A stretch of DNA of 64,000 nucleotides from Escherichia coli. Its GTDB lineage: Bacteria; Pseudomonadota; Gammaproteobacteria; Enterobacterales; Enterobacteriaceae. Each line of letters begins with the position of its first letter. The first letter of the stretch is position 1. Position numbers and translations under genes: made by a program. The stretch lies in assembly GCF_003019035.1 (NCBI RefSeq), contig NZ_CP027447.1. The stretch is one strand, 5' to 3'. Positions 26,874 to 47,051 of the stretch are shown here, piece after piece. The notes under the pieces were generated by a model. The model was not told the DNA's origin. It saw nothing but the letters and a program-made list of their open reading frames with translations, and did no database searches.

Positions 26874-29255
26874 TTAGTGGGAGGTTCTGATTGCTGCTTT
26901 CAAGGCCGGAAGCCGGGACGGACTGGCACTGAGCTTATCAATCCCCATGGTGAGCAGTCGTGCTGTTTGCTGGGTATCTCCAGCCATTTCGCCGCACATA
27001 CTGACCGGAATTTCATTATTACGTCCGGCCTGACACACCATAGCAATAGCGTTAATCACCGCGTCATTACGATAATCGACCAGTTCCGCGACGGTGCTAT
27101 TTCCTCTGTCTGCCGCCATAATATATTGCGTCAGATCGTTGGTGCCGATGGAAAAGAAATCGACTTCACTGGCTAATTTTTCTGCAATCATGACTGCAGC
27201 AGGAACCTCAATCATAATTCCCAGCGCCGGAAGATTTTCTGCAGTAAGTCCCAGCAGTTTTGCCTGCGTTTGTATCAGCGTTTTGACGGCGTTGACCTCC
27301 TCGAGCGTTGAAACCATCGGCAGCATAATTTGCAGCGTTGGGTATTCTTTCCCGGCCCGGAGAAGTGCGCGTAATTGCGGAATAAATATTTGCGGATGCG
27401 CCAGGCACAACCGGATACCGCGAAGTCCCAGGAACGGGTTGTCCTCTGCGGGTAAAGGGTACGAAGGTAATGGCTTGTCACCGCCAATATCCAGAGTGCG
27501 GATGGTGACTGGTTTATCGCCAAAAGCCTGAGCAACAGAACAATACACGCGAAACTGCTCTTCTTCATCGGGTAATGTTGCAGACTCATGGAATAAAAAC
27601 TCTGTGCGCAGTAAACCCACGCCCTCAGCCCCGTGAGATAGCGCAGCCTCAATATCTTGCAGGTCACCAATATTCGCCAGCACGCTGATTTTTCGCCCAC
27701 CTTGCGTGACAGCGGGCAGCATGGCATCAGCTAACTGACGATCCCTTTGTTGCCGCCATGCTTCGGCGCGTTGCAGTAAATCCAGGCGGGTGACCTCATC
27801 CGGCTGTAGCCACAAACGGCCTGTTTCACCATCAAGAATGACTGTGTCGTTATCGCGGACGTTTTGCGGGGTAATAGCTGCCTTCACAATGGCAGGAATA
27901 CCCATTGCTCTGGCAAGGATCGCTGTATGTGAAGTTGTTCCGCCATTATGAAGACAAATGCCAAGAATGTGTGCTTTATTCAGGCTGGTTATCTGTGATG
28001 GCAACAGATCGTTGGCTAACAAAATGCAGGGCGCGGTAGTAATAAAGTGTTGTTCACTTACCCCGCAAAGCTGGTTCAGTACCTGACGTGTAAGGTCACG
28101 GATATCTGCCTCGCGTTCACGTAAATACAGTGTTTCCGCCTGACAATATTGCTCTGCTAATGCCTGCATGACTTCTAACCATGCGAATTCCGCCTGTTTG
28201 CCCTTTGCCAGACGTTGCTGTAATTGCCGGTTAATCTTTGGATCTTCAAGCATCATTTTATGGGCGGCAAAAATATCGCCTTCAGGGCCTGCCGCTTTAT
28301 CGGCAAGTTCACAAACAACAATGTCGATAGCAGACTCGATTCGCGACAGCTCTTCTTGCGGAGAATCGACGGTGCGCTGCGTAATTTCTGGTCGTTCGCA
28401 GGTAAACCATTTAACAGGACCAATAGCGATACCATTTTGTACTGACAAGCCTGATATTGCGCCATCAACAGGGGCGCTGACCACCGGCGTTTCCGTTAGC
28501 GGAATCTCTGAAGAAGCGAGCAGGTGAGCTTCACCAAAATGATTTTTCGCCAACGTTTCAATTGCCTTGAGAGCGTCACTGGCATCGGTGCCTTCGGCCT
28601 GGAAGATGATTTCATCGCCACAGCGGACGCCCAGCATTGCCAGTTCGTTGAGACTGCGGGTGCTGGCGCGTTTATCGCCTTTGATGACGATAATGTTTGC
28701 CGAAAATTGTGCGGATACTTTCAGGATGCTGGCTGCCGGACGAGCATGAATGCCGTGGGGATTACGTATCGTCCAGCAAAAAGTTTGCCATTCATCGCAA
28801 TGATTGATTGGTGATATTGCTGGAATAACCTCGCCTGCAGTTGAGGATGGCGTGAGTTGCTGCTGTTTAGCACACAGCGCAAGATCCACTTCAGCGATAA
28901 TCTCCGTCACCGAAAGCCCCGCTGCGGCAGACGTTACCGCTGACATGGCACCTTCCACTACAGGGGCGGCGAGCAGATAAATTGCACTTCTTTGCTCTTC
29001 AGAAAGCAGCTCCAGCGCCATCTCGGTACTAAGCAGCGCACTGCCCATATCCATGAGTACCAGAACGCCATCCGGTGACCAGACCGATTCAATCGCAGAC
29101 ATAATGGCAATAGCATCAGTGCCAATCGGATTTTGCGGATCATCAATACCTGCAGCAATGGCCAGAGGAACGTCCCCTCCAGACATCTGTAGTGCTAATT
29201 CCTCAACCCCCTGGGCGAGACGTAGACTATGAGAAACAATAACAATGGCAACCAT
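26874..29255 (-). CDS. DhaM-like PTS multiphosphoryl transfer protein (EIIA-Man-like, HPr-like and full Enzyme I domains)
   Basis: N-terminus MVAIVIVSHSLRLAQGVEEL...IAAGIDDPQNPIGTDA closely resembles DhaM. HPr-like HGIHARPAA. EI-like GGTTSHTAILARAMGIPAIV and PEP-utilising C-terminal region. 793 aa. Confidence 0.75.
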   Translation of the reverse strand: MVAIVIVSHSLRLAQGVEELALQMSGGDVPLAIAAGIDDPQNPIGTDAIAIMSAIESVWSPDGVLVLMDMGSALLSTEMALELLSEEQRSAIYLLAAPVVEGAMSAVTSAAAGLSVTEIIAEVDLALCAKQQQLTPSSTAGEVIPAISPINHCDEWQTFCWTIRNPHGIHARPAASILKVSAQFSANIIVIKGDKRASTRSLNELAMLGVRCGDEIIFQAEGTDASDALKAIETLAKNHFGEAHLLASSEIPLTETPVVSAPVDGAISGLSVQNGIAIGPVKWFTCERPEITQRTVDSPQEELSRIESAIDIVVCELADKAAGPEGDIFAAHKMMLEDPKINRQLQQRLAKGKQAEFAWLEVMQALAEQYCQAETLYLREREADIRDLTRQVLNQLCGVSEQHFITTAPCILLANDLLPSQITSLNKAHILGICLHNGGTTSHTAILARAMGIPAIVKAAITPQNVRDNDTVILDGETGRLWLQPDEVTRLDLLQRAEAWRQQRDRQLADAMLPAVTQGGRKISVLANIGDLQDIEAALSHGAEGVGLLRTEFLFHESATLPDEEEQFRVYCSVAQAFGDKPVTIRTLDIGGDKPLPSYPLPAEDNPFLGLRGIRLCLAHPQIFIPQLRALLRAGKEYPTLQIMLPMVSTLEEVNAVKTLIQTQAKLLGLTAENLPALGIMIEVPAAVMIAEKLASEVDFFSIGTNDLTQYIMAADRGNSTVAELVDYRNDAVINAIAMVCQAGRNNEIPVSMCGEMAGDTQQTARLLTMGIDKLSASPSRLPALKAAIRTSH

Positions 29256-29258
29256 AAT

Positions 29259-29891
29259 TTATCCCGCGAATCCTTCCTGCATAGCCTTAATCATCAGCCA
29301 GGAGGAGGTCGCGCCTGGATCCTGATGGCCCACACTGCGAGCGCCGAGATAACTGGCACGTCCTTTTTTCGCCTGCATATTGATGGTGTTATCGACGGCT
29401 GTTGCCGCATCTTGCACCATCGTATTCAGCAGAAGGGAAGGCGACATTCCGGCTTGCAGGTTCTTTTTGGCTTCGTGGAGAACTGGAACCCAGACATCAC
29501 ACAGAGTTTTATCCCTTTGTTCTGCTTTTCCTCGTGCGATAACGCCTGCAATCCCTTCTTCCAGACACGCCAGCCACTCTTCCAGAGTTAATTCTGTTCT
29601 GGCTCCCACTGCCGCAGAAGCGCGAATAAATAATGTGCCGTAAAGAGGACCACTGGCACCGCCAACGCTGGAAAGTAGTTTCATGCCAGTATTTTTAAGA
29701 ATATTGCCAATATGCTGACGTTCAATGTCGGGCAACGTCGCTTTCACTGCACTGAAACCACGATTCATATTGAGGCCGTGGTCGGCATCACCAATATCTC
29801 TGTCAAGTGCGGTTAGAAAATCTTGTTGTTCAGTGAGATGTGCAGCACAACTCTCCAGCCAGGCAATAACATGTTTGTTTTGAATTTTCAT
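29259..29891 (-). CDS. Dihydroxyacetone kinase ADP-binding subunit DhaL-like
   Basis: 210-aa ORF with ...DRDIGDADHGLNMNRGF... DhaL signature; sits between the DhaK-like and DhaM-like genes. Confidence 0.8.
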   Translation of the reverse strand: MKIQNKHVIAWLESCAAHLTEQQDFLTALDRDIGDADHGLNMNRGFSAVKATLPDIERQHIGNILKNTGMKLLSSVGGASGPLYGTLFIRASAAVGARTELTLEEWLACLEEGIAGVIARGKAEQRDKTLCDVWVPVLHEAKKNLQAGMSPSLLLNTMVQDAATAVDNTINMQAKKGRASYLGARSVGHQDPGATSSWLMIKAMQEGFAG

Positions 29892-29903
29892 ATAATGTCC
29901 TTA

Positions 29904-30974
29904 TTAACATCCCCAACGAAGCGCTGGCGTATTGACCGGGGCATCCCAAAGTTGCAAAAACTCTGGGGTACATTTCAGCAGGCTGATGGAAAATCCGGCC
30001 ATATCTAATGATGTACAATAATTACCGACCAACTGGCGGCTAATTTTAATTCCCTGGCGCTGTGCGGCGCACATAAATACCCTGGCTACACCATATAACT
30101 CTGATTCAGGCGTGCTGCCAAGTCCGTTAATTAACACAATATATTCGGCATTTTGATCGAATGACTCATTCATTGATGATGCGTCAATCCATCCCCCCGC
30201 ATGGCGATCCCAATGGCGTAATGTGCGTCGCCAGGGGGTATTATCCAGTAATTGCGCTATCACGCTGTCGATTAAAGTGTTCAGATCTTGCAAAGTGCGG
30301 CGTTCAATGCCGGGTTCACCGTGGATCCCGACACCAAATTCGATTTCATTATCAGCCAGTTCAAATGAGGGTTTTCCCGCGGCGGGAACCGTACAGGCTG
30401 ACAGTGCGATGCCAAAAGAACGGGTGGCATTGTTAACATTTTTGCCAAGTTGCTCGCACTGCCCCAGGTTATATCCCTGAAGTGCAGCCGCACCGACAAT
30501 CTTTTCAACAAAAACTGTACCCGCAACACCGCGACGTCCGGCTGTATACAGGCTATCTTTTACCGCTACATCATCATCAATAATGACGGTCCCAACGGCG
30601 ATGCCTTCTTCGTGTAACATCTCGACTGCCGTTTCGAAATTCAGAATATCGCCTGTGTAATTTTTGATGAAAAACAGAACGCCAGAACCATTATCAACCG
30701 CTTTGGCACATTCGATCATTTGATCTGGCGTGGGCGATGTGAAGATTTCACCAGGACATGCACCGGTTAACATTCCCATACCGACAAAACCTGCATGCAG
30801 TGGTTCATGGCCTGAGCCGCCGCCTGAAATCAGCGCCACTGCATTATCGGTTTGTTTGCACCACACATATCGGGGCGCGTAATTTGCCTGCAGGTGTGGC
30901 CAGGTGGCGATGAGTCCTTCCATTTGTTCTGTGACAACAGAATCAATCTGGTTAATTAATTTCTTCATAGTCAT
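29904..30974 (-). CDS. Dihydroxyacetone kinase substrate-binding subunit DhaK-like
   Basis: 356-aa ORF with ...ISGGGSGHEPLHAGFVGMGMLTGACPGEIFTSP... DhaK signature. Confidence 0.8.
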   Translation of the reverse strand: MTMKKLINQIDSVVTEQMEGLIATWPHLQANYAPRYVWCKQTDNAVALISGGGSGHEPLHAGFVGMGMLTGACPGEIFTSPTPDQMIECAKAVDNGSGVLFFIKNYTGDILNFETAVEMLHEEGIAVGTVIIDDDVAVKDSLYTAGRRGVAGTVFVEKIVGAAALQGYNLGQCEQLGKNVNNATRSFGIALSACTVPAAGKPSFELADNEIEFGVGIHGEPGIERRTLQDLNTLIDSVIAQLLDNTPWRRTLRHWDRHAGGWIDASSMNESFDQNAEYIVLINGLGSTPESELYGVARVFMCAAQRQGIKISRQLVGNYCTSLDMAGFSISLLKCTPEFLQLWDAPVNTPALRWGC

Positions 30975-31293
30975 TCCTGTTCTGATAAATTACGTAAATC
31001 GCGCTAAATATGTTTGCGAGATTAATTCTCCAGCCGCAATAAAACAAATCGCACGATAATAAGATTCATAATGAAACAGTTAATTCATGGTGTTGTTTCA
31101 AAATGAAAAGGGACCAGTATGGATATTGATATATTGTGATTAAGGCATGAAAAGTGTTTTTTATTATCATCTGCAGATGATGTTTTTTACAGCGCGATCA
31201 TAAAACATAATTTTTCGCGAATGAAATGTTTGCCGCCACTGGATGCAACGAGTAGGTTAACAGTGAAGCAAAACAAGTTACGCGAGGAATGAT

Positions 31294-32376
31294 ATGGATA
31301 AGATTATTATAAGTCCGGCTAAATATATCCAGGGAAATGGTTCTCTGGATAATATTGCTACATATGCGGCGAGTTTGGGAACAGAACCATTAATTATTGC
31401 AGATGAATTTGTGACCGGTCTGGTTGGTGACAGAGTAAGCCAGAGCTTTGCAAGAGAAAACATTATTGCGGATCTTGATGTTTTTTGCGGTGAATGCTCG
31501 CAAAATGAAATTTCTCGAATTCGTGAGAAATTTAATCAGCGTAAATATAATGTCGTTATTGGTATTGGCGGCGGTAAAACGTTGGATACGGCAAAAGCCG
31601 TAGCGTATTACCAAAAAATTCCGGTGGTGGTGGTGCCGACAATTGCTTCCACAGATGCGCCAACCAGTTCTCTGGCAGTAATTTACACCCCGGAAGGCCA
31701 GTTTAGCGAATATCTGTTTTTCCCGAAAAACCCGGATATGGTGATTATGGATACTGGCGTCATTTCAGCCGCGCCAGTGCGTCTGCTGGTGGCCGGTATG
31801 GGAGATGCATTGTCAACCTGGTTTGAGGCGAGAGCCAATCAGGCGTCAGGAAAAGCCACAATGGCAGGTGGGGCGTCGACACTGGCGGCACTGGCTATTG
31901 CCCGACTCTGTTATACCACGCTACTGGAAGATGGCTATAAGGCAAAAGTCGCGGTTGAACAAGGTGTTAGCACCAAAGCGGTAGAGAATATTATCGAAGC
32001 TAATACCTATCTTAGCGGCATTGGATTTGAAAGTAGCGGCCTGGCGGCAGCTCATGCCATTCATAACGGCATGACGCAACTGGAGGAATGCCATCATTGC
32101 TACCACGGTGAAAAAGTGGCATTTGGCGTCCTGGTACAGCTCGTACTGGAAAACGCACCACAGGAGGAAATTGAAACCGTACTCAATTTCTGCCATAGCG
32201 TTGGTCTGCCGACAAATCTTCATATGTTAGGCGTGAAGGAAATTAATAAAGATAAATTACGGGCAGTGGCTGAAGCAGCGACTGCTGAAGGGGAAACTAT
32301 CCATAATATGCCATTCGTAGTAACAGCGCAGGACGTTCTTTGCGCAATTTTAACTGCACATCATTTGGGACTTTAA
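31294..32376 (+). CDS. Glycerol dehydrogenase-like iron-containing alcohol dehydrogenase (GldA paralogue)
   Basis: 360-aa ORF, MDKIIISPAKYIQGNGSL... similar to the GldA N-terminus; divergent from the dhaKLM-like operon. Confidence 0.75.
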   Translation: MDKIIISPAKYIQGNGSLDNIATYAASLGTEPLIIADEFVTGLVGDRVSQSFARENIIADLDVFCGECSQNEISRIREKFNQRKYNVVIGIGGGKTLDTAKAVAYYQKIPVVVVPTIASTDAPTSSLAVIYTPEGQFSEYLFFPKNPDMVIMDTGVISAAPVRLLVAGMGDALSTWFEARANQASGKATMAGGASTLAALAIARLCYTTLLEDGYKAKVAVEQGVSTKAVENIIEANTYLSGIGFESSGLAAAHAIHNGMTQLEECHHCYHGEKVAFGVLVQLVLENAPQEEIETVLNFCHSVGLPTNLHMLGVKEINKDKLRAVAEAATAEGETIHNMPFVVTAQDVLCAILTAHHLGL

Positions 32377-32386
32377 AAAAATAATA

Positions 32387-32409
32387 CGGCCTGTGCAAAG
32401 CAGGCCGTT
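32387..32409 (+). terminator. Possible terminator hairpin after the gldA-like gene
   Basis: acggcctg-tgcaaag-caggccgt hairpin followed by a weak T-rich run. Confidence 0.3.
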
Positions 32410-32443
32410 GGTGTCATTTTAAATACTTCATTCGGGAATAAAT

Positions 32444-33712
32444 ATGACCAGTAACTGGAAACGTTGGATCACGCTGGCGTTATGTGGTATTGCCGGAAGT
32501 GCAATATATAAATTGCCTTATTTACGGGAAACCTATTACGACGCGATGCAGCAGGCTACAGGAGCGACTAATGCTGAACTTGGTTTTCTAATGACAGCCT
32601 ATGGTCTGGTGAACTTTTTATTATATCTACCTGGCGGTTGGGCTGCCGATAGATTTTCTGCACGTAAATTAATGACCTTTTCATTAATTTCCACCGGGAT
32701 AAGTGGTTTTTATTATGCGACCTTCCCCTCGTATACTATGATCTGTTTGTTACATGCACTTTGGGCTGTTACAACCGTATTTACGTTTTGGGCCGTGTGT
32801 GTGCGAATTATTCGTACCCTGGGAACCAGCGAAGAACAAGGTCGCTTATACGGTTACTGGTTTCTGGGTAAGGGATTAACCTCCATTGTACTGGGATTTC
32901 TTTCCGTGCCGGTATTTGCCAAATTTGGCGAAGGTGTTGATGGTTTACGGGCGACAATTATTTTTTATTCCGTAGTGACTATTCTGGCCGGTGTTTTAGC
33001 TTGGTTTGTTTGTCAGGATGAAACGCACAGCGAAGATAAAGCGAATTTCCGTCTGGCAGATATGGCATTCGTGCTGAAAATGCCGACGGTTTGGCTGGCA
33101 GGTGTTGTGACCTTTTGTATGTGGTCAATTTATATCGGCTTTGGCATGGTCACGCCGTATCTCACGCAGATCCTGCATATGGGCGAATCGGAAGTGGCAG
33201 TTGCCAGTATTCTTCGCGCCTATGTGTTATTTGCGATGGGGGGATTAATTGGCGGACAACTGGCCGACCGCTGTGCGTCACGCACGCGTTTTATGATTTA
33301 CGCCTTTATCGGCATGATTGTCTTTACTACCGTTTATTTCTTCCTGCCCGGTGAGTCGCGCTACGTCACTATTGCGCTGGCGAATATGGTTGCGTTGGGC
33401 GTGTTTATTTACTCTGCGAATGCCGTGTTCTTCTCAATTATTGATGAGGTTCGGATCCCGGCAAAAGTCACAGGGACTGCTGCGGGTCTGATCTCTTTAC
33501 TGACTTATTTCCCGGAAATCTACTGCTACACGATGGTGGGCAATATGGTCGACCGCAAACCGGGTATTGCCGGTTATCAGGATGTTTTCCTGTTCATGTT
33601 GGTTTGCGCATTCATCGGCCTTATCGCCGCACTGGTCCTCCAGCGTGTGAATCGTAAAAGTAAAAATCAAGTCAATGAAATCACTGAAAACAATGCGGAT
33701 TGCGCATCCTGA
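32444..33712 (+). CDS. MFS-type transporter
   Basis: 422-aa polytopic hydrophobic ORF. Confidence 0.65.
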   Translation: MTSNWKRWITLALCGIAGSAIYKLPYLRETYYDAMQQATGATNAELGFLMTAYGLVNFLLYLPGGWAADRFSARKLMTFSLISTGISGFYYATFPSYTMICLLHALWAVTTVFTFWAVCVRIIRTLGTSEEQGRLYGYWFLGKGLTSIVLGFLSVPVFAKFGEGVDGLRATIIFYSVVTILAGVLAWFVCQDETHSEDKANFRLADMAFVLKMPTVWLAGVVTFCMWSIYIGFGMVTPYLTQILHMGESEVAVASILRAYVLFAMGGLIGGQLADRCASRTRFMIYAFIGMIVFTTVYFFLPGESRYVTIALANMVALGVFIYSANAVFFSIIDEVRIPAKVTGTAAGLISLLTYFPEIYCYTMVGNMVDRKPGIAGYQDVFLFMLVCAFIGLIAALVLQRVNRKSKNQVNEITENNADCAS

Positions 33713-35094
33713 GTCTGACGGGGGAACCAATGGTGGACATGATTAATGAAAGTGCACGGCAAACGCCAGTCATTGCACAAACGGACGTTCTGGTTATCGG
33801 GGGCGGTCCGGCAGGATTAACGGCGGCGATAGCGGCGGGGCGGCTAGGTGCCAGAACCATGATTGTTGAGCGTTACGGCTCACTAGGCGGCGTATTGACG
33901 CAGGTTGGTGTGGAAAGTTTTGCCTGGTATCGCCATCCGGGGACGGAAGATTGTGAAGGGATTTGTCGTGAATATGAAGGCCGCGCGCGAGCATTGGGCT
34001 TCACGCGACCAGAACCTCAGTCAATTAGCGAAGTTATAGATACTGAAGGATTTAAAGTTGTTGCCGATCAGATGATAACGGAAGCTGGCGTTGAGCCGTT
34101 ATATCACTCCTGGGTTGTGGATGTGATCAAGGAAGGGGATACGTTATGCGGTGTTATTGTCGAGAACAAATCAGGACGAGGGGCAATTCTGGCGAAAAGA
34201 ATCGTCGATTGCACGGGGGATGCTGATATTGCTGCTCGTGCAGGCGCGCCCTGGACGAAACGGGGAAAGGACCAACTGATGGGCGTCACCGTGATGTTCA
34301 GTTGCGCAGGTGTCGATGTGGCGCGCTTTAACCGTTTTGTTGCGGAAGAACTTAAGCCGACCTACGCGGATTGGGGAAAAAACTGGACGATTCAAACCAC
34401 GGGCAAAGAAGACCAGATGTTTAGCCCTTATATGGAGGATATTTTTACCCGGGCGCAGCAGGATGGTGTGATTCCAGGCGACGCCCAGGCGATTGCCGGA
34501 ACCTGGTCAACCTTTTCTGAAAGCGGCGAAGCGTTTCAGATGAATATGGTGTACGCCTTTGGTTTTGACTGTACCGATGTCTTCGATTTAACCAAAGCAG
34601 AAATCGCCGGAAGGCAGCAAGCATTATGGGCAATTGACGCTCTACGCCATTATGTTCCGGGCTTTGAAAATGTACGGTTACGCAATTTTGGCGCCACGCT
34701 GGGTACACGTGAATCACGGCTTATTGAGGGGGAAATACGTATTGCTGATGATTACGTCCTTAATCAGGGGCGTTGTTCGGACAGTGTAGGGATTTTCCCG
34801 GAATTTATTGATGGTTCCGGTTATCTCATTTTGCCAACGACCGGGCGTTTCTTTCAGATCCCCTATGGCTGTCTGGTGCCACAAAAAGTGGAGAACCTTT
34901 TGGTCGCCGGTCGCTGTATTTCCGCAGGCGTAGTTGCACATACTTCTATGCGCAACATGATGTGTTGTGCCGTTACCGGTGAGGCCGCAGGCACTGCCGC
35001 CGTGGTTTCGCTACAGCAACATTGCACCGTGCGTCAGGTTGCTATCCCTGATTTGCAAAACACGCTGCAACAGCAGGGCGCACGTCTGGCATAA
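33700..35094 (+). CDS. FAD-dependent oxidoreductase (paralogue 1)
   Basis: N-terminal dinucleotide-binding motif DVLVIGGGPAGLTAAIAA; about 460 aa; paralogous to 44263..45633. Confidence 0.7.
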   Translation: MRILSLTGEPMVDMINESARQTPVIAQTDVLVIGGGPAGLTAAIAAGRLGARTMIVERYGSLGGVLTQVGVESFAWYRHPGTEDCEGICREYEGRARALGFTRPEPQSISEVIDTEGFKVVADQMITEAGVEPLYHSWVVDVIKEGDTLCGVIVENKSGRGAILAKRIVDCTGDADIAARAGAPWTKRGKDQLMGVTVMFSCAGVDVARFNRFVAEELKPTYADWGKNWTIQTTGKEDQMFSPYMEDIFTRAQQDGVIPGDAQAIAGTWSTFSESGEAFQMNMVYAFGFDCTDVFDLTKAEIAGRQQALWAIDALRHYVPGFENVRLRNFGATLGTRESRLIEGEIRIADDYVLNQGRCSDSVGIFPEFIDGSGYLILPTTGRFFQIPYGCLVPQKVENLLVAGRCISAGVVAHTSMRNMMCCAVTGEAAGTAAVVSLQQHCTVRQVAIPDLQNTLQQQGARLA

Positions 35095-35146
35095 CAACAA
35101 GGCGCAGAGAGCTGAAAACCTGTCTGCGCCTTGCAGGAGAAAGACC

Positions 35147-35371
35147 ATGAGGGATGATGACCTTGAGCACTTAAGTGCCAATTACTGGATAACCACAGTT
35201 CTCTGCGGCCTCTTTTTGGGGATATTCCTGTTCATGCTGCAACAGCATCAGTGTGGTTTAGCTCTGTATTGTATTGCGGTACTTTCACTTATTTGCGCCT
35301 TTTTTTCTTTACGCCTTTCCCGACAATTGCAACACATGAAAAAGGAACGGCGAAATATTCGTCCTCATTGA
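35147..35371 (+). CDS. Small putative membrane protein
   Basis: 74 codons from an ATG preceded by aggaga; one or two hydrophobic helices. Weak support. Confidence 0.3.
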   Translation: MRDDDLEHLSANYWITTVLCGLFLGIFLFMLQQHQCGLALYCIAVLSLICAFFSLRLSRQLQHMKKERRNIRPH

Positions 35372-35394
35372 ATGAAAACATTCAGGAGACTGAA

Positions 35395-39096: not shown

Positions 39097-39113
39097 GATA
39101 AATACCTCAGGGA

Positions 39114-39896: not shown

Positions 39897-39908
39897 AATC
39901 CTGTTTCC

Positions 39909-41648
39909 TTATAAATCGAGAATTTCTTCAAATTCTGTGACTTTATTAATGTCAGGTCCCATAGCGATATTAGTCACGCGTTCAGTAATAATTTCCACAA
40001 CAACAGGTACGTGAAATTCGTCACGCAAACGCTGGGCTTCTTGCAGTGCAGGCGCAATATCCTGTGATGCGAATACGCGAATCGCTTTACATCCTAATCC
40101 TTCAACCACAGCTTTATGATCAACGCCATAACCATTAATTTCTGGAGCATTAATATTTTCAAATGACAGTTGAACGCAATAATCAATATCAAATGCACGT
40201 TGTGATTGACGAATCAAACCAAGATAAGCGTTGTTAAGTAAAATATGGATATACGGAAGATTAAATTGTGCGCCGACGGCTAATTCTTCAATCAAGAATT
40301 GAAAATCGTAATCACCGGATATTGCCACAACGGGAACAGATGGATCAGCTTTTACCGCGCCCAGTGCTGCGGGCATTGTCCAGCCTAGCGGCCCAGCCTG
40401 ACAGGCATTAATCCAGTGGCGTGGGCGGTAAACATGTAAAAATTGGTTTGCGGCGATTTGCGCCAGACCAATTGTCGAAATATAGCGTGTCTCCGGTCCG
40501 AAAACCTTATTCATTTCGTGATACACGCGCTGCGGTTTAATTGGATTGCAGTCAAAGTCTGAACGACGAAGCATTGTGCGTTTACGCTCGGCACATTCGG
40601 CAATCCAGCGACTGCGGTCTTTCAGTTCTCCACGTGACTTCATATCACGGGCGACCTGAATAAATAGCGTTAAGGCGCTTTCAGCATCAGAAACAATGCC
40701 CAGATCCGGCGCAAATATCCGGCCAATTTGTGCAGGTTCGATATCAACATGAATGAATTTGCGGCCTTCGGTGTAGGTCTCAATGGCTCCGGTATGACGG
40801 TTTGCCCAACGGTTACCGATACCAAAAACAAAATCGGAGGCCAGATAACTGGCGTTACCATAGCGATGACCCGCCTGACATCCCATGCGACCAATCATTA
40901 GGGGATGATCATCTGATAATGCGCCCCAACCGCGTAAGGTTTGAATGACGGGAACGCCAGTTAACTCGACAAACTCACGCAACAATTCACTCGCTTCGGC
41001 GTTAATAATGCCACCGCCAGCGATGATGACGGGCTTTTCGGCGCCATTTAGCATTTCTAATGCGCGTACGGCCTGGGCCCGTGTTGCCTGAGGTTGCCAG
41101 GGGGTTAGTGGCTGATAGAGATCGATATCAAACTCAATTTCGGTCATCTGAACATCAAAAGGGAGATCTAAAAGAACCGGGCCAGGGCGGCCTGAACGCA
41201 TTTCCCAGAAGGCTTTCTGGAATATCCCCGGCAACTGACCCGCTTCGAGAATTGTGCGAGCCATTTTGGTTACTGGCGTGGCGATAGCCTCAATATCGAC
41301 GGCCTGGAAATCTTCTTTATGAAGTTTTCCTACGGGAGCTTGACCAGTAATGCAGAGAATAGGAATGGAATCCGCGGAGGCGGAATAAAGCCCCGTAATC
41401 ATATCAGTGCCCGCAGGGCCTGATGTGCCAATACACACGCCAATATTGCCATTCTGACTGCGGGTGTAACCTTCAGCCATATGCGAGGCGCCCTCAACAT
41501 GACGGGCCAGAATATGATCAATACCGCCTGATTTTTTCATCGCGGCATAGAGTGGGTTGATTGCTGCGCCGGGTACACCAAAAGCAACGCTAATGCCTTC
41601 TTTTTTCAGTATTTCTACTGCAGCTTCGATTGCACGCATCCTCGCCAT
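39909..41648 (-). CDS. Glyoxylate carboligase-like ThDP enzyme (Gcl paralogue)
   Basis: 579-aa ORF; N-terminus [64 protein letters not shown] parallels E. coli Gcl, including Val51 where other ThDP enzymes have the catalytic Glu. Confidence 0.75.
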
Positions 41649-42026
41649 ACATTATTTCTCCTGATATTTACGCTGAGTTGAATAGTCAGTCAATTTTGGA
41701 ATTTAACGACGAAATATCTTTGAGGAAATAAAAGGGCAGAACAAATTTCGCTGCACTGTTTCACAGTGAAACAACTCGTATGCCTGTGTTGTTTCAGTTT
41801 GAATAATGATAAATATCAAACGCAAAGATTTCAGATGTTGTTGGCAGTTTTAAAATTTATCTAATGTATTATTCGTTTTTTATTGCTTTAACGGTTATTC
41901 TTTCTAATGTATGTATGGTTACATTGTTGATAAGGTCTGTTTTTGTAATGATCCAGACTAGATATTATTGCGTTTGATCAAGCTTACTGGCATAGCATTC
42001 TGATACAAGTTCTGAAAATGACTTGA

Positions 42027-43976
42027 ATGGATATTATTATAATGAATAAAGAGTCGTATCATAATGATCTAAAAAATAAATGGAAAATGTTTGTTAAGCA
42101 TGGTTGGGTCGCGACAAATTCGACTAATCATGTGATGCTGAGGTCATGGCAAAAATGTCTCAAGCATTGTGACCCTCGCCACTGGAACACGCCTGTCAAA
42201 GCTTCCGGGCAAACATTGCAGACGATTTTTTCTCGTAACGAAGAGTTTATTAGAATTTCACAAAGAGTTGTTGAAGACCATTTCACTCTGGCTGGTGACG
42301 ACCGGTTGGCATTTTTGATCATTGACCCACACGGCTGGGTTCTATCGTTGAATGCAGCAGGCGATTATTCCAGTCAATTGCGAGAGTTAGGAATTGAATC
42401 TGGTATGTCATGGGCCGAAGATGGCATTGGAACCAATGTATATAGTCTTTGTCGGGAAACAAATTTATATACACAACTGGAAGGAGCAGAACATTTTAGT
42501 GAACAGCTACATTGTTATGCGATGAGCGCTGCTCCGGTCATTGATTATTATGGTAATATCCATGGATACATTGTATGTATAATTGAAACTACCGCCGAGC
42601 TTGTTAAATTAAAAACATCATATTCATGTGCAACAGAAATCGCTAATTATATCTATATTGAGAATGAACAAAAGTTAATAAACAAAGTACTTTGCCAGCA
42701 TAATGCTGTGATTGAATGCATGGATGACGGTTTTATTTGTTGGAATAGTCATTCTTTAATTACGATGGTTAATTCTCAAGCACAAACACTACTGAATATT
42801 GATAAAGAAAGTTTAATTGGTCAGAACATCCGAAAAGGATTCGTATTTCCGCCGATTTTGAATGAGGCAATTACACAACGGAACAAACTATCGCAAAAGC
42901 AAATTGTCCTCGAATGCCGTGGCGAATTTATTGAACTTATGGTTACCCTTCGCCCGTTAAGCGATGGTTCGTTTTTACTTTTTCTTCATCCATTAGACAA
43001 AATCAGGAAAATAGCCCAACAGCAAATAAGCACTAATGCAAATTTTACCTTTGACAGTTTACATGCGGCTTCAGGTGGTATGAAGCAGGTATTACTTATC
43101 GCTCGCCGGGCAATTAAATCCATCTCTCCGATTTTGATCAATGGCGAAGAAGGTGTGGGAAAATTGAGTTTGGCGATGGCAATACATAATGAGAGCGAGC
43201 AACGTGATGGGCCATTTATTTCTGTAGATTGTCAGATGCTATCACCAGAAAATATCTTACACGAACTTCTTGGCTCTGATGTTGGCCCTTCGCCATCGAA
43301 ATTTGAACTGGCTCATAATGGCACCTTATATCTGGATAAAGTCGAATATCTATCAGGGGAAGTTCAGAGTGTTTTATTGAAAGTATTGAAAACGGGGCTT
43401 GTTACTCGCTCAGACAGCCATCGTTTGATCCCCGTACGCTTTCGCCTGATTACATGTACCAGTAGTTCGTTACGTGAGTACGTGCAACAAGGGGCTTTTA
43501 GCCGACAGCTATATTATGAGATCTCCATGAATGAAATTGAAATTCCGCCATTGCGCAAACGTCGTGAAGATCTCAAGCAAATGATTGACGATATTATTGA
43601 TAAGTATCAGGAGCGCACTCGAAAAAAAATGACAATCACGCCTGACGCAAATTCAGTTCTGCTTGAGTACCGTTGGCCTGGAAACATCTCCGAGTTCAAA
43701 AATCGAATGGAGAAGGTATTTATTAACTGCAATCGGCTTGTCCTCGGATTAGAGAATATTCCTCTGGATATCCGACAAAATAACAGTAGTGGCGACGATG
43801 ATATCCCTCATCTTACTTCACTGGCAGAATTGGAGATGCAAGCTATTGAGCATACATGTCGTGTCTGCGAATGGAATCTAACTAAAGCAGCTGAAGTATT
43901 AAAAATTGGTCGTACAACATTATGGCGCAAGCTTAAAATCTATAATCTCTATCCAAATGTTGAGCATGCAGATTGA
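42027..43976 (+). CDS. AAA+ bacterial enhancer-binding-protein-like regulator lacking a GAFTGA motif (DhaR/TyrR-like)
   Basis: 649-aa ORF; central AAA+ domain (GEEGVGKL Walker A-like, NGTLYLDKV Walker B-like) and C-terminal Fis-type HTH (...GRTTLWRKLKIY). No GAFTGA is seen in the translation. Confidence 0.65.
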   Translation: MDIIIMNKESYHNDLKNKWKMFVKHGWVATNSTNHVMLRSWQKCLKHCDPRHWNTPVKASGQTLQTIFSRNEEFIRISQRVVEDHFTLAGDDRLAFLIIDPHGWVLSLNAAGDYSSQLRELGIESGMSWAEDGIGTNVYSLCRETNLYTQLEGAEHFSEQLHCYAMSAAPVIDYYGNIHGYIVCIIETTAELVKLKTSYSCATEIANYIYIENEQKLINKVLCQHNAVIECMDDGFICWNSHSLITMVNSQAQTLLNIDKESLIGQNIRKGFVFPPILNEAITQRNKLSQKQIVLECRGEFIELMVTLRPLSDGSFLLFLHPLDKIRKIAQQQISTNANFTFDSLHAASGGMKQVLLIARRAIKSISPILINGEEGVGKLSLAMAIHNESEQRDGPFISVDCQMLSPENILHELLGSDVGPSPSKFELAHNGTLYLDKVEYLSGEVQSVLLKVLKTGLVTRSDSHRLIPVRFRLITCTSSSLREYVQQGAFSRQLYYEISMNEIEIPPLRKRREDLKQMIDDIIDKYQERTRKKMTITPDANSVLLEYRWPGNISEFKNRMEKVFINCNRLVLGLENIPLDIRQNNSSGDDDIPHLTSLAELEMQAIEHTCRVCEWNLTKAAEVLKIGRTTLWRKLKIYNLYPNVEHAD

Positions 43977-44262
43977 TGCTTTTCAAATTGAAAGAATTTT
44001 AATATCGCAGTGTTTCATTTTGATGCAGTGCTTTAATGGTATTGAAATATTGTGATGTGCTCCATAAATGCCAATGTGGTTATTAGCCAGGGAGACGGAA
44101 AATGTGTTTACACTCCTGAAATAATAAAAAATAGGCAAAGAGAGATGATCTCCTTGTATGTCTGTATTAGCATGATGTTGCTTGTTAATAATTAAAAATA
44201 TCAACGCGCTTATATAAGCGCGGGGGATTGTTTTACTCAATTATTGAATACGGAGATAAAGT

Positions 44263-45633
44263 ATGGAATTTTATCTGGAACCCGCTCGTAATATACCTGT
44301 ACTGGCAACCACGGAAGTGTTAGTTGTTGGTGGTGGTCCATCGGGTATTGCCGCAGCAATGAGTGCCGCTCGTGAAGGCGCAGCTACTATGCTGATTGAA
44401 CGTTTCGGTTGTTTTGGCGGAATGATGACAACGGCTGGCGTCGAGTCAATTGCCTGGTGGCGTCATGAAAATACGGTAGAGTCAGGTGGACTGGCACGCG
44501 AAATAGAAGAAACGGCAAAATCAATGGGGGCGTCCAGCCCTGAGCCGCAATCGAATAGTCAGGCTATTAACGCCGAGCGTTTCAAACTGGTTGCGGATGC
44601 AATGCTTGAACAGGCAGGTGTGCGCCGCGTACTACACATTACCGCCGTTGATGTTATTAAGCAGGGCAATAATTTACTCGGCGTAATAACAGAGAGTAAA
44701 TCTGGTCGTCAGGCTATTTTGGCGAATGTCATTATTGACTGTACTGGCGATGCCGATATTGCATGGTTTGCCGGAGCACCATTTATTAAGCGTGAACGTG
44801 AAGACCTGATGTGTATGACAACCGTTTTTAGTTGCGCAAATGTCAATAAAAACGCGTTCATGCAAAATATTAAGAGCACGGAACCTAAATATGGAGACTG
44901 GGGGGCGGATGAAGAAAATAAAAACTGGTCTTATGATGTTCATGAATCTTGTCGCGATATGTTTAGCCCTTATCTGGGTAAAGTCTTTGCGAAAGGAAAG
45001 TCGGCAGGAATTATTCCAAAAGATGTGACGTTAGGCGGTTCCTGGAGTACGGTCACCGAGTATGGTGATGCGAATTACTTGAACGTTGTCAGCATCCCTG
45101 CCGTCGATTGTACGGATGTTTTTGACCTGACGCGTGCAGAAATAGAAGGCCGCAAGCAAGCCATGCAGGCGATTGAAGCGTTGCGTCAATTCCAGCCAGG
45201 ATTTGAACAGGCACAATTAAAAAATTTCGGTATGACGGTGGGAACAAGAGAATCAAGACATATTATTGGGCGAGTCCAGCTTACGGAAAATGATATTTGT
45301 AATGAGGGACGTCATGCGGATTCAATAGGGGTATTCCCTGAGTTTATAGATGGAAATGGTCATCTTAAATTACCTCTTGAAGCGAACTATTTTCAAATCC
45401 CTTATGGCGTAATGATTCCGCAGCAAGTTGAAAACCTGTTGGTTTGCGGACGGGCAATCGATGCAGATAATTTCGCCTATGCGACAATCCGTAATATGGG
45501 GTGTTGTATTGTCACTGGAGAAGGTGCAGGGACTGCCGCTGCTATTGCCATTAAAAATAACACTACCGTTTCACAGGTAGATATTCAGACGGTACAGGAA
45601 CGCTTACAGCAAAATGGCGTAAAAGTCTTTTAA
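44263..45633 (+). CDS. FAD-dependent oxidoreductase (paralogue 2)
   Basis: 456-aa ORF, EVLVVGGGPSGIAAAMSAA...; clearly paralogous to 33700..35094 along the whole length. Confidence 0.7.
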   Translation: MEFYLEPARNIPVLATTEVLVVGGGPSGIAAAMSAAREGAATMLIERFGCFGGMMTTAGVESIAWWRHENTVESGGLAREIEETAKSMGASSPEPQSNSQAINAERFKLVADAMLEQAGVRRVLHITAVDVIKQGNNLLGVITESKSGRQAILANVIIDCTGDADIAWFAGAPFIKREREDLMCMTTVFSCANVNKNAFMQNIKSTEPKYGDWGADEENKNWSYDVHESCRDMFSPYLGKVFAKGKSAGIIPKDVTLGGSWSTVTEYGDANYLNVVSIPAVDCTDVFDLTRAEIEGRKQAMQAIEALRQFQPGFEQAQLKNFGMTVGTRESRHIIGRVQLTENDICNEGRHADSIGVFPEFIDGNGHLKLPLEANYFQIPYGVMIPQQVENLLVCGRAIDADNFAYATIRNMGCCIVTGEGAGTAAAIAIKNNTTVSQVDIQTVQERLQQNGVKVF

Positions 45634-45647
45634 CAGGGAATAAAGTT

Positions 45648-47051
45648 ATGAGAGAAAAACCCAGTTTTTATGTCGCGCTTACACCGATCATTTTTATGAT
45701 GATCGTGTTGGTTGTTGGCATCGGTGTTATGGGCTGGCCTGCCAGCGTCTGTTTATTAATTTCAGCGGCGTTTTCCTGCATTATTGCAATGGCTAAGCTG
45801 AAATATACCTGGGATGAAATCCAGGGGTTTATTATCGATAAGATTTCGGCGGTGATGGCACCGGTACTTATCGTTATTTTCGTTGGCTTTATGGTCGCGA
45901 CATGGAGCTATGCAGGTACACTGCCGATGCTGGTTTATTACGGTATGTTACTGGTTGCGCCCGCATGGCTTTATGCCATAGCGTTTTTTCTGAACGCAAT
46001 ATTGTCCTATGTTTCCGGGGCATCATGGGGATCTGTCGCTTCTATTGGTGTTGCATTAATGGGCATCGGTTCCGGCTTACATGCCGATCTTCCAATTCTG
46101 GCGGCAGCCATTGTTACCGGGGCTTATTTTGGCGACAAACTTTCACCGTTAAGTGATACCACTAACCTGACTTCAGCGGTAACCAAAACTAAACTTTATG
46201 ATCTGATTAAATATCTACTCTGGACGACCATCCCATCAACGATTATTAGCCTGCTGTTTTTTACCTGGCTGGGAATGATTCATACTTCTACGGGCTCTAT
46301 TTCACCAGAAAGCATGCAGATGCTGGTACAGCTCAAAGAGTTATATAAGTTTGGTCTGTTACCGCTACTGCCTATGCTTATTGTTCTGTGCTTTACCTTT
46401 TTGCGTTTGCCTACAGTACCGGCATTATTAAGCAGTGCGTTCGTGGCCGTATTGGTTGGATGGCTGTATCAAGGTTTCCCGCTGGCCGAAGGTATTAAGG
46501 CCACAATGAGTGGTTTCCGTCTGACGATGATCACTGATTCAACGACGCTGTTACCTTCTGTGAAAGAACTGCTTGAACAAGGCGGCCTGAATAATCAGGG
46601 CGGATTCCTGTCATTTATTATCTGCGCCATGATGTTTGCTGGCATCCTGACGGGAACAGGAATGATGGATGTCACATTACAAAGTGCGGCAAACAAAATA
46701 AAAAGTGCTTTTGGCGCTATTCTGGCAAGCGGTGTTTTAGCGATCATCATTAACTTACTTACCGGTTCTGATGGTTTGAATAAGATTGTTATATCTGAAT
46801 TGATGATGAAGAAATTCGAAGATCTTAATTTATCACCGTTAGTCTTAGCCCGAACGCTGGAAGATTTTGGCACCATGAGCGCGCCAATTATTCCGTGGTC
46901 AGCTGCCGGATTGTATATGGCGACAACACTAGGCGTGCCGACGTTTAGTTACTTGCCGTACTGTGTATTCTGTTTCTGCTCGATGATATTTGCGTTGATC
47001 TATGCTTCTACAGGTTTCCGTTTACTGCGCTTCAACGAAGCAAAGGCCTGA
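45648..47051 (+). CDS. Polytopic membrane transporter (NhaC-like family)
   Basis: 467-aa highly hydrophobic ORF immediately downstream of oxidoreductase paralogue 2. Family assignment is tentative. Confidence 0.55.
   Translation: MREKPSFYVALTPIIFMMIVLVVGIGVMGWPASVCLLISAAFSCIIAMAKLKYTWDEIQGFIIDKISAVMAPVLIVIFVGFMVATWSYAGTLPMLVYYGMLLVAPAWLYAIAFFLNAILSYVSGASWGSVASIGVALMGIGSGLHADLPILAAAIVTGAYFGDKLSPLSDTTNLTSAVTKTKLYDLIKYLLWTTIPSTIISLLFFTWLGMIHTSTGSISPESMQMLVQLKELYKFGLLPLLPMLIVLCFTFLRLPTVPALLSSAFVAVLVGWLYQGFPLAEGIKATMSGFRLTMITDSTTLLPSVKELLEQGGLNNQGGFLSFIICAMMFAGILTGTGMMDVTLQSAANKIKSAFGAILASGVLAIIINLLTGSDGLNKIVISELMMKKFEDLNLSPLVLARTLEDFGTMSAPIIPWSAAGLYMATTLGVPTFSYLPYCVFCFCSMIFALIYASTGFRLLRFNEAKA

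Follow-up and report, generated by a model that had tools for sequence, protein, structure and literature searches.

GimA, the island between iraD and hypT of Escherichia coli, as a probable DhaR-type regulon for imported polar compounds

What is the DNA that separates iraD from hypT in some Escherichia coli genomes, and which function do its genes share? The window analyzed here, a stretch of 64,000 nucleotides, contains iraD (yjiD; 26434-26826, plus strand; NCBIfam IraD 278 bits against a cut-off of 198) and hypT (yjiE; 47138-48049, minus strand; NF007488, 695 against 301 bits) as left and right flank of such an insert. In the K-12-type empty site used for comparison, the two genes are convergent and overlap by 8 bp. 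This site matches the window at 24300-26806 and 47134-49699 in BLASTN, and the resulting breakpoints delimit an insert of 20,327 bp (26807-47133). The insert supplants the last ~20 nt of the K-12-type iraD, where the alignment breaks at 26806, and its GC content of 46.1% is not distinct from that of the immediate flanks in the window (44.6% and 48.3%). Among 5,426 E. coli genomes that are complete, 245 contain at least 80% of the region, and nearly all others have the empty site. Both comparisons bear out an earlier note on this DNA, in which iraD and hypT are neighbors in K-12 and the island intervenes.

The insert is the GimA locus, and the second of its FAD-dependent oxidoreductases is ibeA. 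This identification rests on position, size, GC content and four operons, which fit the published locus of 20.3 kb and 46.2% GC between yjiD and yjiE with the operons ptn, cgl, gcx and ibeRAT (Huang 2001; Homeier 2010). It is further based on RefSeq, which calls ibeA in genomes that are 97-99.7% identical, including UTI89, UM146 and NC101, and on a ptsP remnant of 372 bp, present in one UPEC genome, that fits the published GimA remnant. The pair ibeA-ibeT was found in 246 of the 5,426 genomes, every time as a single chromosomal copy. The novelty implied by the earlier note therefore falls away: GimA was described in 2001 with a functional annotation essentially that of the modules in the note, and ibeA has been much studied. 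The note had also considered that the island could prove to be a well-characterized operon set with a known substrate; the island is indeed well known, but the literature that could be searched names no substrate for it. What is new here is the putative operator, the recurring core and IbeA as a predicted soluble protein.

GimA comprises 14 intact annotated genes in four transcription units of mixed orientation and one conserved unannotated ORF of 74 codons, a content confirmed by ORF listing and NCBIfam scans; all core enzymes score above the curated cut-offs. The earlier figure of 15 intervening genes is 14 in the current annotation, unless the ORF is counted as the fifteenth, and the published count of 15 divides the ptn genes into four. 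As the note had stated, the modules are a DhaKLM-type kinase, GldA, Gcl-Hyi-GlxR-GlxK, an MFS transporter, a DhaR-like regulator and, each with a transporter gene behind it, two FAD oxidoreductases that are paralogues.

The ptn operon, on the minus strand, encodes a dihydroxyacetone kinase. DhaK, the dihydroxyacetone-binding subunit (29904-30974; TIGR02363, 461 against 406 bits), is 59% identical to K-12 DhaK with H56, D109 and H218 conserved, and DhaL, the ADP-binding subunit (29259-29891; TIGR02365, 246 against 138 bits), is 54% identical to K-12 DhaL with the DxGDADHG motif conserved. The third gene (26874-29255; published as ptnI/ptnP, 'pptE') fuses DhaM to a complete PTS enzyme I, and its EIIA-like, HPr-like and EI domains match the NCBIfam models dha_pts (119.6 bits against 98), HPr and PTS_I_fam (462 against 342). 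This protein is 37.5% identical to K-12 DhaM over 493 aa and keeps all three phospho-His positions of the latter.

The cgl operon, on the plus strand, begins with a GldA-like glycerol dehydrogenase (cglD; 31294-32376; NF006941, 558 against 336 bits), followed by an MFS transporter (cglT; 32444-33712) that weakly resembles anion:cation symporters (PgtP, D-galactonate). An MFS protein of equal length (422 aa), compared by length and position, adjoins gldA in Serratia. CglE (33730-35094), annotated as 'FAD-dependent oxidoreductase', is a PF12831 enzyme and a paralogue of IbeA with 51% identity; its ORF has an alternative TTG start at 33700. The unannotated ORF (35147-35371) encodes a small hydrophobic protein conserved at the protein level, with 97% identity in a B2-type E. 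coli, 79% in E. albertii, 71% in C. freundii, where it is called as a gene, and 42% in Citrobacter sp. NCU1. The operon ends with a BCCT-family transporter (cglC; 35395-36936), which is nearest to CaiT and stays below the cut-offs of both the CaiT (391 against 541 bits) and the BCCT subfamily model (356 against 408). CglE orthologues (68-78% identity) have a BCCT neighbor in every case, and all CglE-linked BCCT orthologues keep the signature variant WTVFYFSWWVVYA. This variant, which departs from the aromatic signature of the family, fits an onium-type substrate, which backs in part the earlier hint at a quaternary amine or zwitterion.

The gcx operon, on the minus strand, encodes the glyoxylate branch: glyoxylate carboligase (39909-41648; NF008431, 1077 against 791 bits; 70% identity to K-12 Gcl), hydroxypyruvate isomerase (39114-39896; TIGR03234, 390 against 353; 56% to Hyi), tartronate-semialdehyde (2-hydroxy-3-oxopropionate) reductase (gcxR; 38209-39096; TIGR01505, 383 against 341; 63% to GlxR) and glycerate kinase (gcxK; 36992-38134; TIGR00045, 550 against 168; 48% to GlxK). 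The isomerase also scores above the cut-off of the 2-oxo-tetronate isomerase model (NF043033, 377 against 325).

The ibeRAT operon, on the plus strand, starts with IbeR (42027-43976; NF008485, 986 against 551 bits), a regulator of the DhaR type that contains AAA+ and HTH_8 domains. IbeA (44263-45633), published as an 'invasion of brain endothelium' protein and named ibeA in RefSeq, is a PF12831 FAD-dependent oxidoreductase (Pfam FAD_oxidored, E=1e-93). IbeT (45648-47051) is an NhaC-family transporter (TIGR00931, 381 against 370 bits) that reaches 291 bits with the ArcD-type antiporter model, under its cut-off. IbeA models as a soluble, cytoplasmic flavoprotein, because the FAD-binding fold is N-terminal, with the GxGxxG motif beginning at residue 23, the sequence shows neither a signal peptide nor a transmembrane segment nor beta-barrel features, the maximum 19-residue hydropathy is 1.43, and the AF2 model (pLDDT 94) depicts a globular two-domain protein. 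The literature that could be searched gives neither a substrate nor a product nor an activity for CglE or IbeA.

The palindrome TGTTTCA-N3-TGAAACA, allowing up to 2 mismatches, has five matches in the 64 kb against 0.46 expected (0 of 100 shuffles reached five), none of them outside the three promoter regions of GimA. At 3 mismatches a sixth site appears, so that every promoter region carries a pair spaced by 32-33 bp: the divergent dhaK/gldA region (31062-31110, 32 bp apart), the divergent gcl/ibeR region (41757-41806, 33 bp apart, the first being a perfect TGTTTCACAGTGAAACA) and, with a palindrome-like pair, the region upstream of ibeA (43979-44027, 32 bp apart). The same pair is found between dhaK and dhaR of K-12, C. 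freundii and E. albertii likewise have sites at the gcl/ibeR position, and the clusters of Citrobacter, Serratia, Vibrio and Photobacterium have palindromes ahead of BCCT, ibeA/ibeT, gldA/dhaK, gcl and dhaR. K-12 DhaR binds DNA sites and is controlled by DhaK and DhaL. By analogy, the palindrome is a putative IbeR/DhaR operator and IbeR, only 33% identical to K-12 DhaR, may be controlled by DhaK and DhaL. Since the palindrome occurs in pairs in all three promoter regions and is present in K-12 dhaK/dhaR and in related clusters, and since the GAFTGA motif is absent from IbeR and the intergenic regions of the island gave no match to a sigma-54 promoter, we infer that the island is a single regulon under a DhaR-type regulator.

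The same set of modules recurs outside E. coli: at least five further genera, which belong to two proteobacterial classes, have it in differing gene orders. A core of GldA and DhaK-DhaL-DhaM::EI, usually with Gcl-Hyi-GlxR, is found in Citrobacter, Serratia, Vibrio, Photobacterium and Pseudovibrio, with differing input modules of a PF12831 flavoenzyme and a transporter attached to it. Core and enzyme/transporter pairs are co-located in V. jasicida, Photobacterium, Vibrio VB16, Serratia and Citrobacter sp. NCU1. In Pseudovibrio, gcl-hyi-glxR-glycerate kinase-gldA-dhaKLM-FAD oxidoreductase-MFS follow each other on one strand. In identity, GimA proteins match those of the Vibrio cluster (46-86%) at least as well as their K-12 paralogues (33-70%), and in Citrobacter, Serratia, Vibrio and Photobacterium these metabolic clusters include IbeA orthologues of 68-89% identity. 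More distant flavoenzyme homologues (about 50% identity) have varied gene contexts. The Serratia cluster contains IbeA-IbeT, GldA and DhaKLM with no gcl within 10 kb, and hence not every input need give glyoxylate.

Our best explanation, to which we assign a probability of about 0.6, is that GimA is an IbeR regulon whose products import polar compounds and derive C3 and C2 units from them. The reading as one pathway is based on the co-location of core and PF12831 pairs across genera and from the single-strand run in Pseudovibrio. CglE would be paired with the BCCT and IbeA with IbeT, and the MFS transporter may serve either. Each of the two flavoenzymes, predicted to be cytoplasmic, would open the route with a redox reaction on a small polar compound taken up by the cell, which in the case of the BCCT probably bears an onium group and a carboxylate. 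Their products would be a C3 unit (glycerol or dihydroxyacetone), converted to DHAP via GldA and the PEP-dependent DhaK-DhaL-DhaM::EI kinase, and glyoxylate as C2 unit, converted to phosphoglycerate via Gcl, Hyi, GlxR and glycerate kinase. IbeR, if it behaves like K-12 DhaR, would respond to the turnover of dihydroxyacetone, as relayed by DhaK and DhaL, and switch on all three promoter regions via the shared palindrome, making induction product-driven. The dedicated C2 and C3 route suggested in the earlier note thus gains from the common putative operator and the co-conserved modules. If the mechanism is true, the virulence phenotypes of ibeA would be secondary to metabolism.

This stands against a large literature that presents IbeA as a surface-exposed invasin. 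GimA would then primarily be a virulence island, in which IbeA binds host vimentin and PSF and so drives entry into brain endothelium, and the metabolic genes would do no more than tune ibeA expression by carbon source. In favor are the published framework, the attenuation of knock-outs in rat and chicken models, extensive work on vimentin and NF-κB, and the enrichment of the locus in NMEC and APEC. However, an N-terminal FAD-binding fold without export or membrane features, orthologues in metabolic clusters of four other genera and a dha/gcl-type palindrome pair in front of ibeA make this an unlikely primary role, and a review places IbeA among cytoplasmic or periplasmic proteins that act on fimbriae via oxidative stress. 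It is possible that IbeA moonlights.

CglE and IbeA could also be reductases rather than dehydrogenases, so that imported compounds are reduced, the CaiT-like BCCT and the NhaC-type carrier swap substrate for product, and the island acts as an electron sink re-oxidizing GldA-derived NADH during glycerol or dihydroxyacetone fermentation. The proximity of the BCCT to the carnitine/gamma-butyrobetaine antiporter CaiT and the sub-threshold match of IbeT to the arginine/ornithine antiporter model point in this direction, and E. coli is not known to have the reductive branch of the dha regulon. Yet a reductive role leaves both gcl-hyi-glxR-glxK within the regulon and the Pseudovibrio run unexplained. 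The flavoenzyme family is, moreover, abundant in SAR86, Halieaceae and the Roseobacter group, which are aerobic marine heterotrophs, and its Halieaceae members adjoin predicted choline dehydrogenase (BetA) and betaine-aldehyde dehydrogenase (BetB) genes. We consider such a sink improbable.

DhaK, GldA and the Gcl route all use up reactive C2/C3 carbonyls, and GimA might accordingly protect against stress by clearing dihydroxyacetone, glyoxal or glyoxylate, and glycolaldehyde, raising peroxide tolerance rather than acquiring nutrients. Mutants in ibeA, ibeR or GimA are, as published, more sensitive to H2O2 and other stresses. Three dedicated transporters, together with the chemoreceptor and porin genes in the Vibrio VB16 cluster, instead point to uptake of external compounds, and exchangeable flavoenzyme/transporter inputs are typical of catabolic loci, which renders detoxification as the main function very unlikely. 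That unrelated genes came together by chance, with no common pathway or regulation, was already disfavored and is scarcely credible despite the four units in mixed orientation and the varied contexts of distant flavoenzyme homologues, given the putative operator pair common to all promoter regions and the module set recurring across genera.

Among known systems, the window copy agrees with GimA of K1 RS218, UTI89 and APEC in its chromosomal site (yjiD/iraD-yjiE/hypT) beside the fim operon, in size (20.3 kb), GC content (46%) and four operons, and in lacking a tRNA, an integrase and a flanking repeat. Its ibeA-ibeT is 99.1% identical at the nucleotide level to that of UTI89 and UM146, and the locus is 97.4% identical to that of the B2-type genome compared, which does not retain yjiC, whereas the background of the window does, as in K-12. 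Nearest is the blood isolate XDL (99.7%), whose ibeR is broken by IS903B, while that of the window is intact. With K-12 dhaKLM-dhaR the island shares the subunit set, catalytic and phospho-His residues, the divergent regulator/kinase layout, a regulator lacking GAFTGA and a palindrome pair in the promoter region. It differs in proteins that are only 33-59% identical, in a DhaM with a full enzyme I, which should make the phosphorelay independent of the general PtsI, and in a putative operator that is also present ahead of the gcl, gldA and ibeA operons. The four enzymes of the K-12 allantoin regulon (gcl-hyi-glxR...glxK) are 48-70% identical and the gcl-hyi-glxR order is kept, but the island contains no allantoin genes, AllR or AllS, has glxK directly downstream and places the operon behind a putative DhaR-type operator. 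The uncharacterized clusters of V. jasicida, Photobacterium, Vibrio sp. VB16, Serratia sp. S1B, Citrobacter sp. NCU1 and Pseudovibrio stylochi combine a GimA-like core with PF12831/transporter pairs, and the gammaproteobacterial ones share the putative GimA operator. They differ from GimA in gene order and in extra genes for a second, distant PF12831 enzyme, a cyclophilin-like protein, a PatB-like C-S lyase, a chemoreceptor and a porin, and some of them carry a single input module, which is IbeA/IbeT, CglE/BCCT or a third flavoenzyme with an MFS transporter of ~470 aa.

The interval 26874-47051 is filled by 14 ORFs, each longer than 200 codons. When a K-12-type genome with an empty site was used as the BLASTN query, matches were obtained to 24300-26806 and 47134-49699 of the window; since they end at 26806 and resume at 47134, the insert comprises 26807-47133, corresponding to 20,327 bp. 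In this K-12-type genome iraD and hypT are convergent and overlap by 8 bp, in line with the adjacency stated in the earlier note. Both the size and the GC content of 46.1% agree with the values published for GimA, which was described as a 20.3-kb island of 46.2% GC in the yjiD-yjiE interval, adjoining the fim operon, with four operons (ptnIPKC, cglDTEC, gcxKRCI and ibeRAT) and without tRNA, mobility genes or direct repeats. The window island likewise is located between yjiD (iraD) and yjiE (hypT) with the fim operon upstream, and carries ibeA within ibeRAT together with the ptn, cgl and gcx operons. No tRNA was found in the 64-kb window, no integrase or IS element among the island ORFs, and no repeat of at least 10 nt common to both island ends. 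Genomes with 97-99.7% identity to the window carry the second oxidoreductase under the RefSeq name ibeA. The island is GimA and is already known, as is its modular annotation, published in 2001. Since the modules assigned in the earlier note correspond in substance to this annotation, its finding is a rediscovery: the NCBIfam assignments agree with the described module content across the island and the note's interpretation has partial support, but the implied novelty does not hold. The note had also considered a well-characterised operon set with a known substrate; the island is known, but a substrate was not found in the searchable literature.

At the iraD-hypT junction, whose occupancy the note had proposed to check by comparative genomics, at least 80% of the region is present in 245 of 5,426 complete E. 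coli genomes and the site is empty in almost all of the rest. The ibeA-ibeT pair was detected in 246 genomes of the complete E. coli set, invariably as a single chromosomal copy, and shows ~99% nucleotide identity in UTI89, UM146 and NC101. A 372-bp ptsP-like gene fragment in the UPEC strain EcPF14 is the counterpart of the published "GimA remnant". The island in the window is 97.4% identical to a B2-type GimA-positive locus (L001) and 99.7% identical to that of the blood isolate XDL, its closest relative. In XDL, ibeR is interrupted by IS903B (L096 29243-32243), while ibeR is intact in the window; XDL thereby represents a natural regulator knock-out in an island that is otherwise 99.7% identical. 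GimA has been reported almost exclusively from B2. As in K-12, yjiC is kept between uxuR and iraD in the window (24941-25771, minus strand), unlike in the compared B2-type genomes, the GimA-positive L001 and the GimA-remnant genome L003, from which it is absent; this hints at a window lineage outside classical B2. The surrounding segment 25000-26000 is AT-rich (37% GC). On the left side, the type 1 fimbrial operon (fimA-fimH) is found beyond gntP-uxuAB. On the right side, a very large inverse autotransporter gene of ~5.2 kb, iatD, follows a few kb past the island, beyond kptA; it was mapped to ~52,400-57,700 from its XDL counterpart (L096 39662-44902), and a pentapeptide-repeat protein gene is situated further out.

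According to NCBIfam, gene 1 encodes a DhaM-like protein fused to a complete PTS enzyme I (DhaM::EI), and genes 2-4 encode DhaL, DhaK and a glycerol dehydrogenase. Genes 5-7 specify an MFS transporter, a PF12831 FAD oxidoreductase (CglE) and a BCCT transporter, genes 8-11 a glycerate kinase, a tartronate-semialdehyde reductase, a hydroxypyruvate isomerase and a glyoxylate carboligase, and genes 12-14 a DhaR-type regulator (IbeR), a second PF12831 oxidoreductase (IbeA) and an NhaC-family transporter (IbeT). Curated cut-offs were passed by the core enzymes, with 1077 against 791 bits for Gcl, 461 against 406 for DhaK and 986 against 551 for DhaR. All four proteins of the glyoxylate branch (Gcl, Hyi, GlxR and glycerate kinase) scored above their curated family cut-offs, the Hyi protein also exceeding that of the 2-oxo-tetronate isomerase model. 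DhaK, which lies above the cut-off of TIGR02363, retains the dihydroxyacetone-binding H218 and its partners H56 and D109 (K-12 numbering); the nucleotide-binding motif of DhaL and the three phospho-His positions of DhaM::EI are retained as well. By residues and family models, the GimA kinase is thus predicted to be of the PTS-dependent dihydroxyacetone kinase (DhaKLM) type. Identity to the K-12 paralogues DhaKLM, DhaR, Gcl, Hyi, GlxR and GlxK amounts to only 33-70%, and the GimA proteins are equally or more similar to those of a Vibrio cluster; the GimA genes therefore did not arise by recent duplication of core genes.

Between cglE and the BCCT gene, an unannotated ORF of 74 codons (35147-35371, plus strand) encodes a small hydrophobic protein. 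At the protein level it is conserved in a B2-type E. coli (97%), E. albertii (79%) and C. freundii (71%, as a called gene), and also at 42% in Citrobacter sp. NCU1, where it precedes the flavoenzyme. The ORF has no RefSeq annotation in the E. coli records inspected. Where the earlier note had counted 15 genes, current RefSeq lists 14, and this conserved ORF could be the fifteenth.

IbeR matches the DhaR model NF008485 over its full length (986 bits vs 551) and possesses an AAA+ domain. The sigma-54 activator motif GAFTGA is absent from its sequence, and sigma-54 promoter matches occurred at chance level, with none in the intergenic regions. IbeR is therefore assigned, as judged from its sequence, to the DhaR-type, sigma-70-dependent class (AAA+ without GAFTGA). 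Comparison of the island intergenic regions yielded the palindrome TGTTTCA-N3-TGAAACA. When up to two mismatches are allowed, the 64-kb window contains five matches, every one of them located in one of the three GimA intergenic regions that bear promoters; 0.46 matches were expected, and at least five were reached in none of 100 shuffles. With up to three mismatches a sixth site is added, and the sites pair up at a spacing of 32-33 bp: 31062/31094 (31062-31110) between the divergent dhaK and gldA, 41757/41790 (41757-41806) between the divergent gcl and ibeR, and 43979/44011 (43979-44027) upstream of ibeA. K-12 has this palindrome pair as well, between dhaK and dhaR (L095 3350-3397). Related clusters carry the sites singly or in pairs: in Vibrio and Photobacterium upstream of the BCCT gene, ibeA or ibeT, gcl and the regulator gene and also between gldA and dhaK, in C. 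freundii and E. albertii between gcl and the regulator gene, in Citrobacter sp. NCU1 upstream of a flavoenzyme-MFS pair, and in Serratia upstream of the MFS gene. We infer that TGTTTCA-N3-TGAAACA is a putative DhaR/IbeR operator. Its occurrence in pairs in three GimA promoter regions, in the K-12 dha promoter and in the related clusters suggests that the whole island would form one regulon.

K-12 DhaR reportedly uses DhaK as a co-repressor and DhaL-ADP as a co-activator, so that transcription is induced by dihydroxyacetone turnover. Taken together with the conserved residues of DhaK, DhaL and DhaM::EI, the most economical model for GimA would be a product-driven induction by dihydroxyacetone. 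As the K-12 dha promoter carries a GimA-type palindrome pair, DhaR and IbeR, which are 33% identical, may cross-regulate each other's targets in GimA-positive strains.

A recurring set was found in other genera, consisting of GldA and DhaK-DhaL-DhaM::EI, usually with Gcl-Hyi-GlxR(-glycerate kinase) and a DhaR-type regulator, and combined with varied flavoenzyme/transporter pairs. The first of these inputs pairs BCCT with CglE (orthologues of 68-78%) and is seen in V. jasicida, Photobacterium and Vibrio VB16, in clusters that also encode another, distant PF12831 enzyme together with a cyclophilin-like protein; in VB16 a chemoreceptor and a porin are added. The BCCT-CglE pair is not confined to clusters with the core: in Pseudovibrio a 2-hydroxyacid dehydrogenase accompanies it instead, and in Endozoicomonas a class V aminotransferase does. 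The second input, IbeA with IbeT, is shared by Escherichia, Citrobacter, Vibrio and Photobacterium, and is accompanied in Serratia by MFS, GldA and DhaKLM, with no gcl within 10 kb. A third flavoenzyme with an MFS transporter of ~470 aa is found in Citrobacter sp. NCU1 and Pseudovibrio, the latter showing gcl-hyi-glxR-glycerate kinase-gldA-dhaK-dhaL-dhaM::EI-flavoenzyme-MFS as a consecutive run on one strand. Around ~45 homologues of ~50% identity, among the matches listed from genomes other than enterobacterial and Vibrio ones, Opp-type ABC transporters, BCCT and class V and class III aminotransferases recurred, and genes read as BetA and BetB were seen in Halieaceae; these ~45 contexts were too varied to name a substrate. 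On plasmids, only distant IbeA homologues in uninformative contexts were found, and GimA was not plasmid-borne. A contig assigned to a Lokiarchaeota MAG carries, beside a phosphofructokinase-like gene, a homologue 46% identical to IbeA (L024 5862-7244); horizontal transfer and misbinning are both possible explanations.

The GimA BCCT protein scored below the cut-offs of the NCBIfam BCCT subfamily (356 vs 408 bits) and of the CaiT model (391 vs 541), precomputed Pfam BCCT matches being recorded only for orthologues in other loci. Its tryptophan-rich TM8 signature reads WTVFYFSWWVVYA, in which, relative to the consensus, one Trp is changed to Phe, a change that is kept in orthologues. The CglE-linked BCCTs share a common variant of the family aromatic signature, WT[VI]FYFSWWVVYA, which, by comparison with BetP and CaiT, is presumably compatible with an onium-type ligand.

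In the simplest reading, the flavoenzymes would perform the first step on imported polar compounds, at a C-N, C-O or C-S bond, and yield glycerol or dihydroxyacetone as a C3 unit along with glyoxylate as a C2 unit, both of which the core would convert to DHAP and phosphoglycerate. A bolder reading, tentative and with a probability of roughly 0.3, is that GimA represents, in E. coli, a widespread, unrecognised kind of dihydroxyacetone-sensing regulon, found in Enterobacterales, Vibrionaceae and Pseudovibrio, for compounds joining glyceryl and carboxymethyl/glyoxylate units to a variable group. Such a regulon would consist of a DhaR-type regulator that senses dihydroxyacetone, an invariant core (GldA, DhaKL-DhaM::EI and Gcl-Hyi-GlxR-GlxK) and exchangeable PF12831 flavoenzyme/transporter inputs, which would cleave compounds carrying glyceryl (C3) and carboxymethyl or glyoxylate (C2) units on a variable, often onium-bearing group. 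The virulence, fimbriation and peroxide phenotypes of IbeA would on this view be side effects of metabolism, the protein itself acting in the cytoplasm as a catabolic enzyme. One concrete candidate substrate comes from DGCC, an algal betaine lipid whose head group, once deacylated, is chemically glycerol, glyoxylate and choline; strombine-type opines, carboxymethyl-lysine, N-/O-carboxymethyl or glyceryl compounds and betaine-lipid head groups are further candidates, none of which we assert. An S-alkyl-cysteine was set aside: a PatB-like C-S lyase lies beside ibeA in V. jasicida, but is absent in Photobacterium and Enterobacterales.

IbeA is 51% identical to CglE; its match to PF12831 spans the whole protein (E=1e-93), with an N-terminal GxGxxG dinucleotide-binding fold. 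The sequence search against the PDB returned the FAD-binding motif only and no close relative. The predicted structure is a globular alpha/beta flavoprotein, and no signal peptide, hydrophobic segment (maximum 19-residue hydropathy 1.43), membrane anchor or beta-barrel was detected. The ibeA product looks like an ordinary cytoplasmic flavoenzyme within a metabolic regulon. That IbeA is instead a surface invasin binding vimentin is unlikely, as it lacks any export signal and its orthologues in other genera belong to metabolic clusters that share the operator, even though the literature reports surface location and vimentin binding, and moonlighting is conceivable. A carbonyl or peroxide stress island, while compatible with the published mutant phenotypes, would leave three transporters and the Vibrio VB16 chemoreceptor unexplained and is improbable. 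A chance juxtaposition of the modules is contradicted by the shared operator and the synteny, and we regard it as ruled out.

The reading of GimA as a dihydroxyacetone-sensing catabolic regulon bears on a gene that serves as a virulence marker worldwide, in neonatal-meningitis, avian and Crohn's-associated E. coli. The island itself is not new; what could matter is naming the substrate, which would help to explain why some ExPEC lineages retain GimA and others, such as ST131 clade C and many UPEC, have it deleted. Searches of the literature up to 2026 on ibeA, PF12831, the GimA genes, carboxymethyllysine, and gcl with dihydroxyacetone kinase and BCCT returned nothing biochemical, and neither a substrate nor an enzymatic activity of CglE or IbeA was found. 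An activity result would be the first for the IbeA/CglE branch of PF12831, which has many marine and gut relatives. The DhaR-type operator and the cross-genus modules make "function unknown" experimentally approachable. Three points were not found in the searchable literature, namely the paired DhaR-type palindromes, the core shared across genera with its exchangeable inputs, and the small ORF; an earlier description of the operator or the ORF is possible.

In Vibrio, Photobacterium and Pseudovibrio, BCCT-CglE is followed by a second PF12831 enzyme that is only ~25% identical to CglE (L005 5038-6784; L098 7898-9602; L100 11444-13109; L048 11384-12661), and in Vibrionaceae this enzyme is in turn followed by a cyclophilin-like protein of ~125 aa (PF04126); both are missing from E. 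coli GimA. E. albertii carries the island at the same place, but hypT is missing and iadA directly follows ibeT (L093 11386-14147), whereas Citrobacter freundii has the same island gene order in another chromosomal context.
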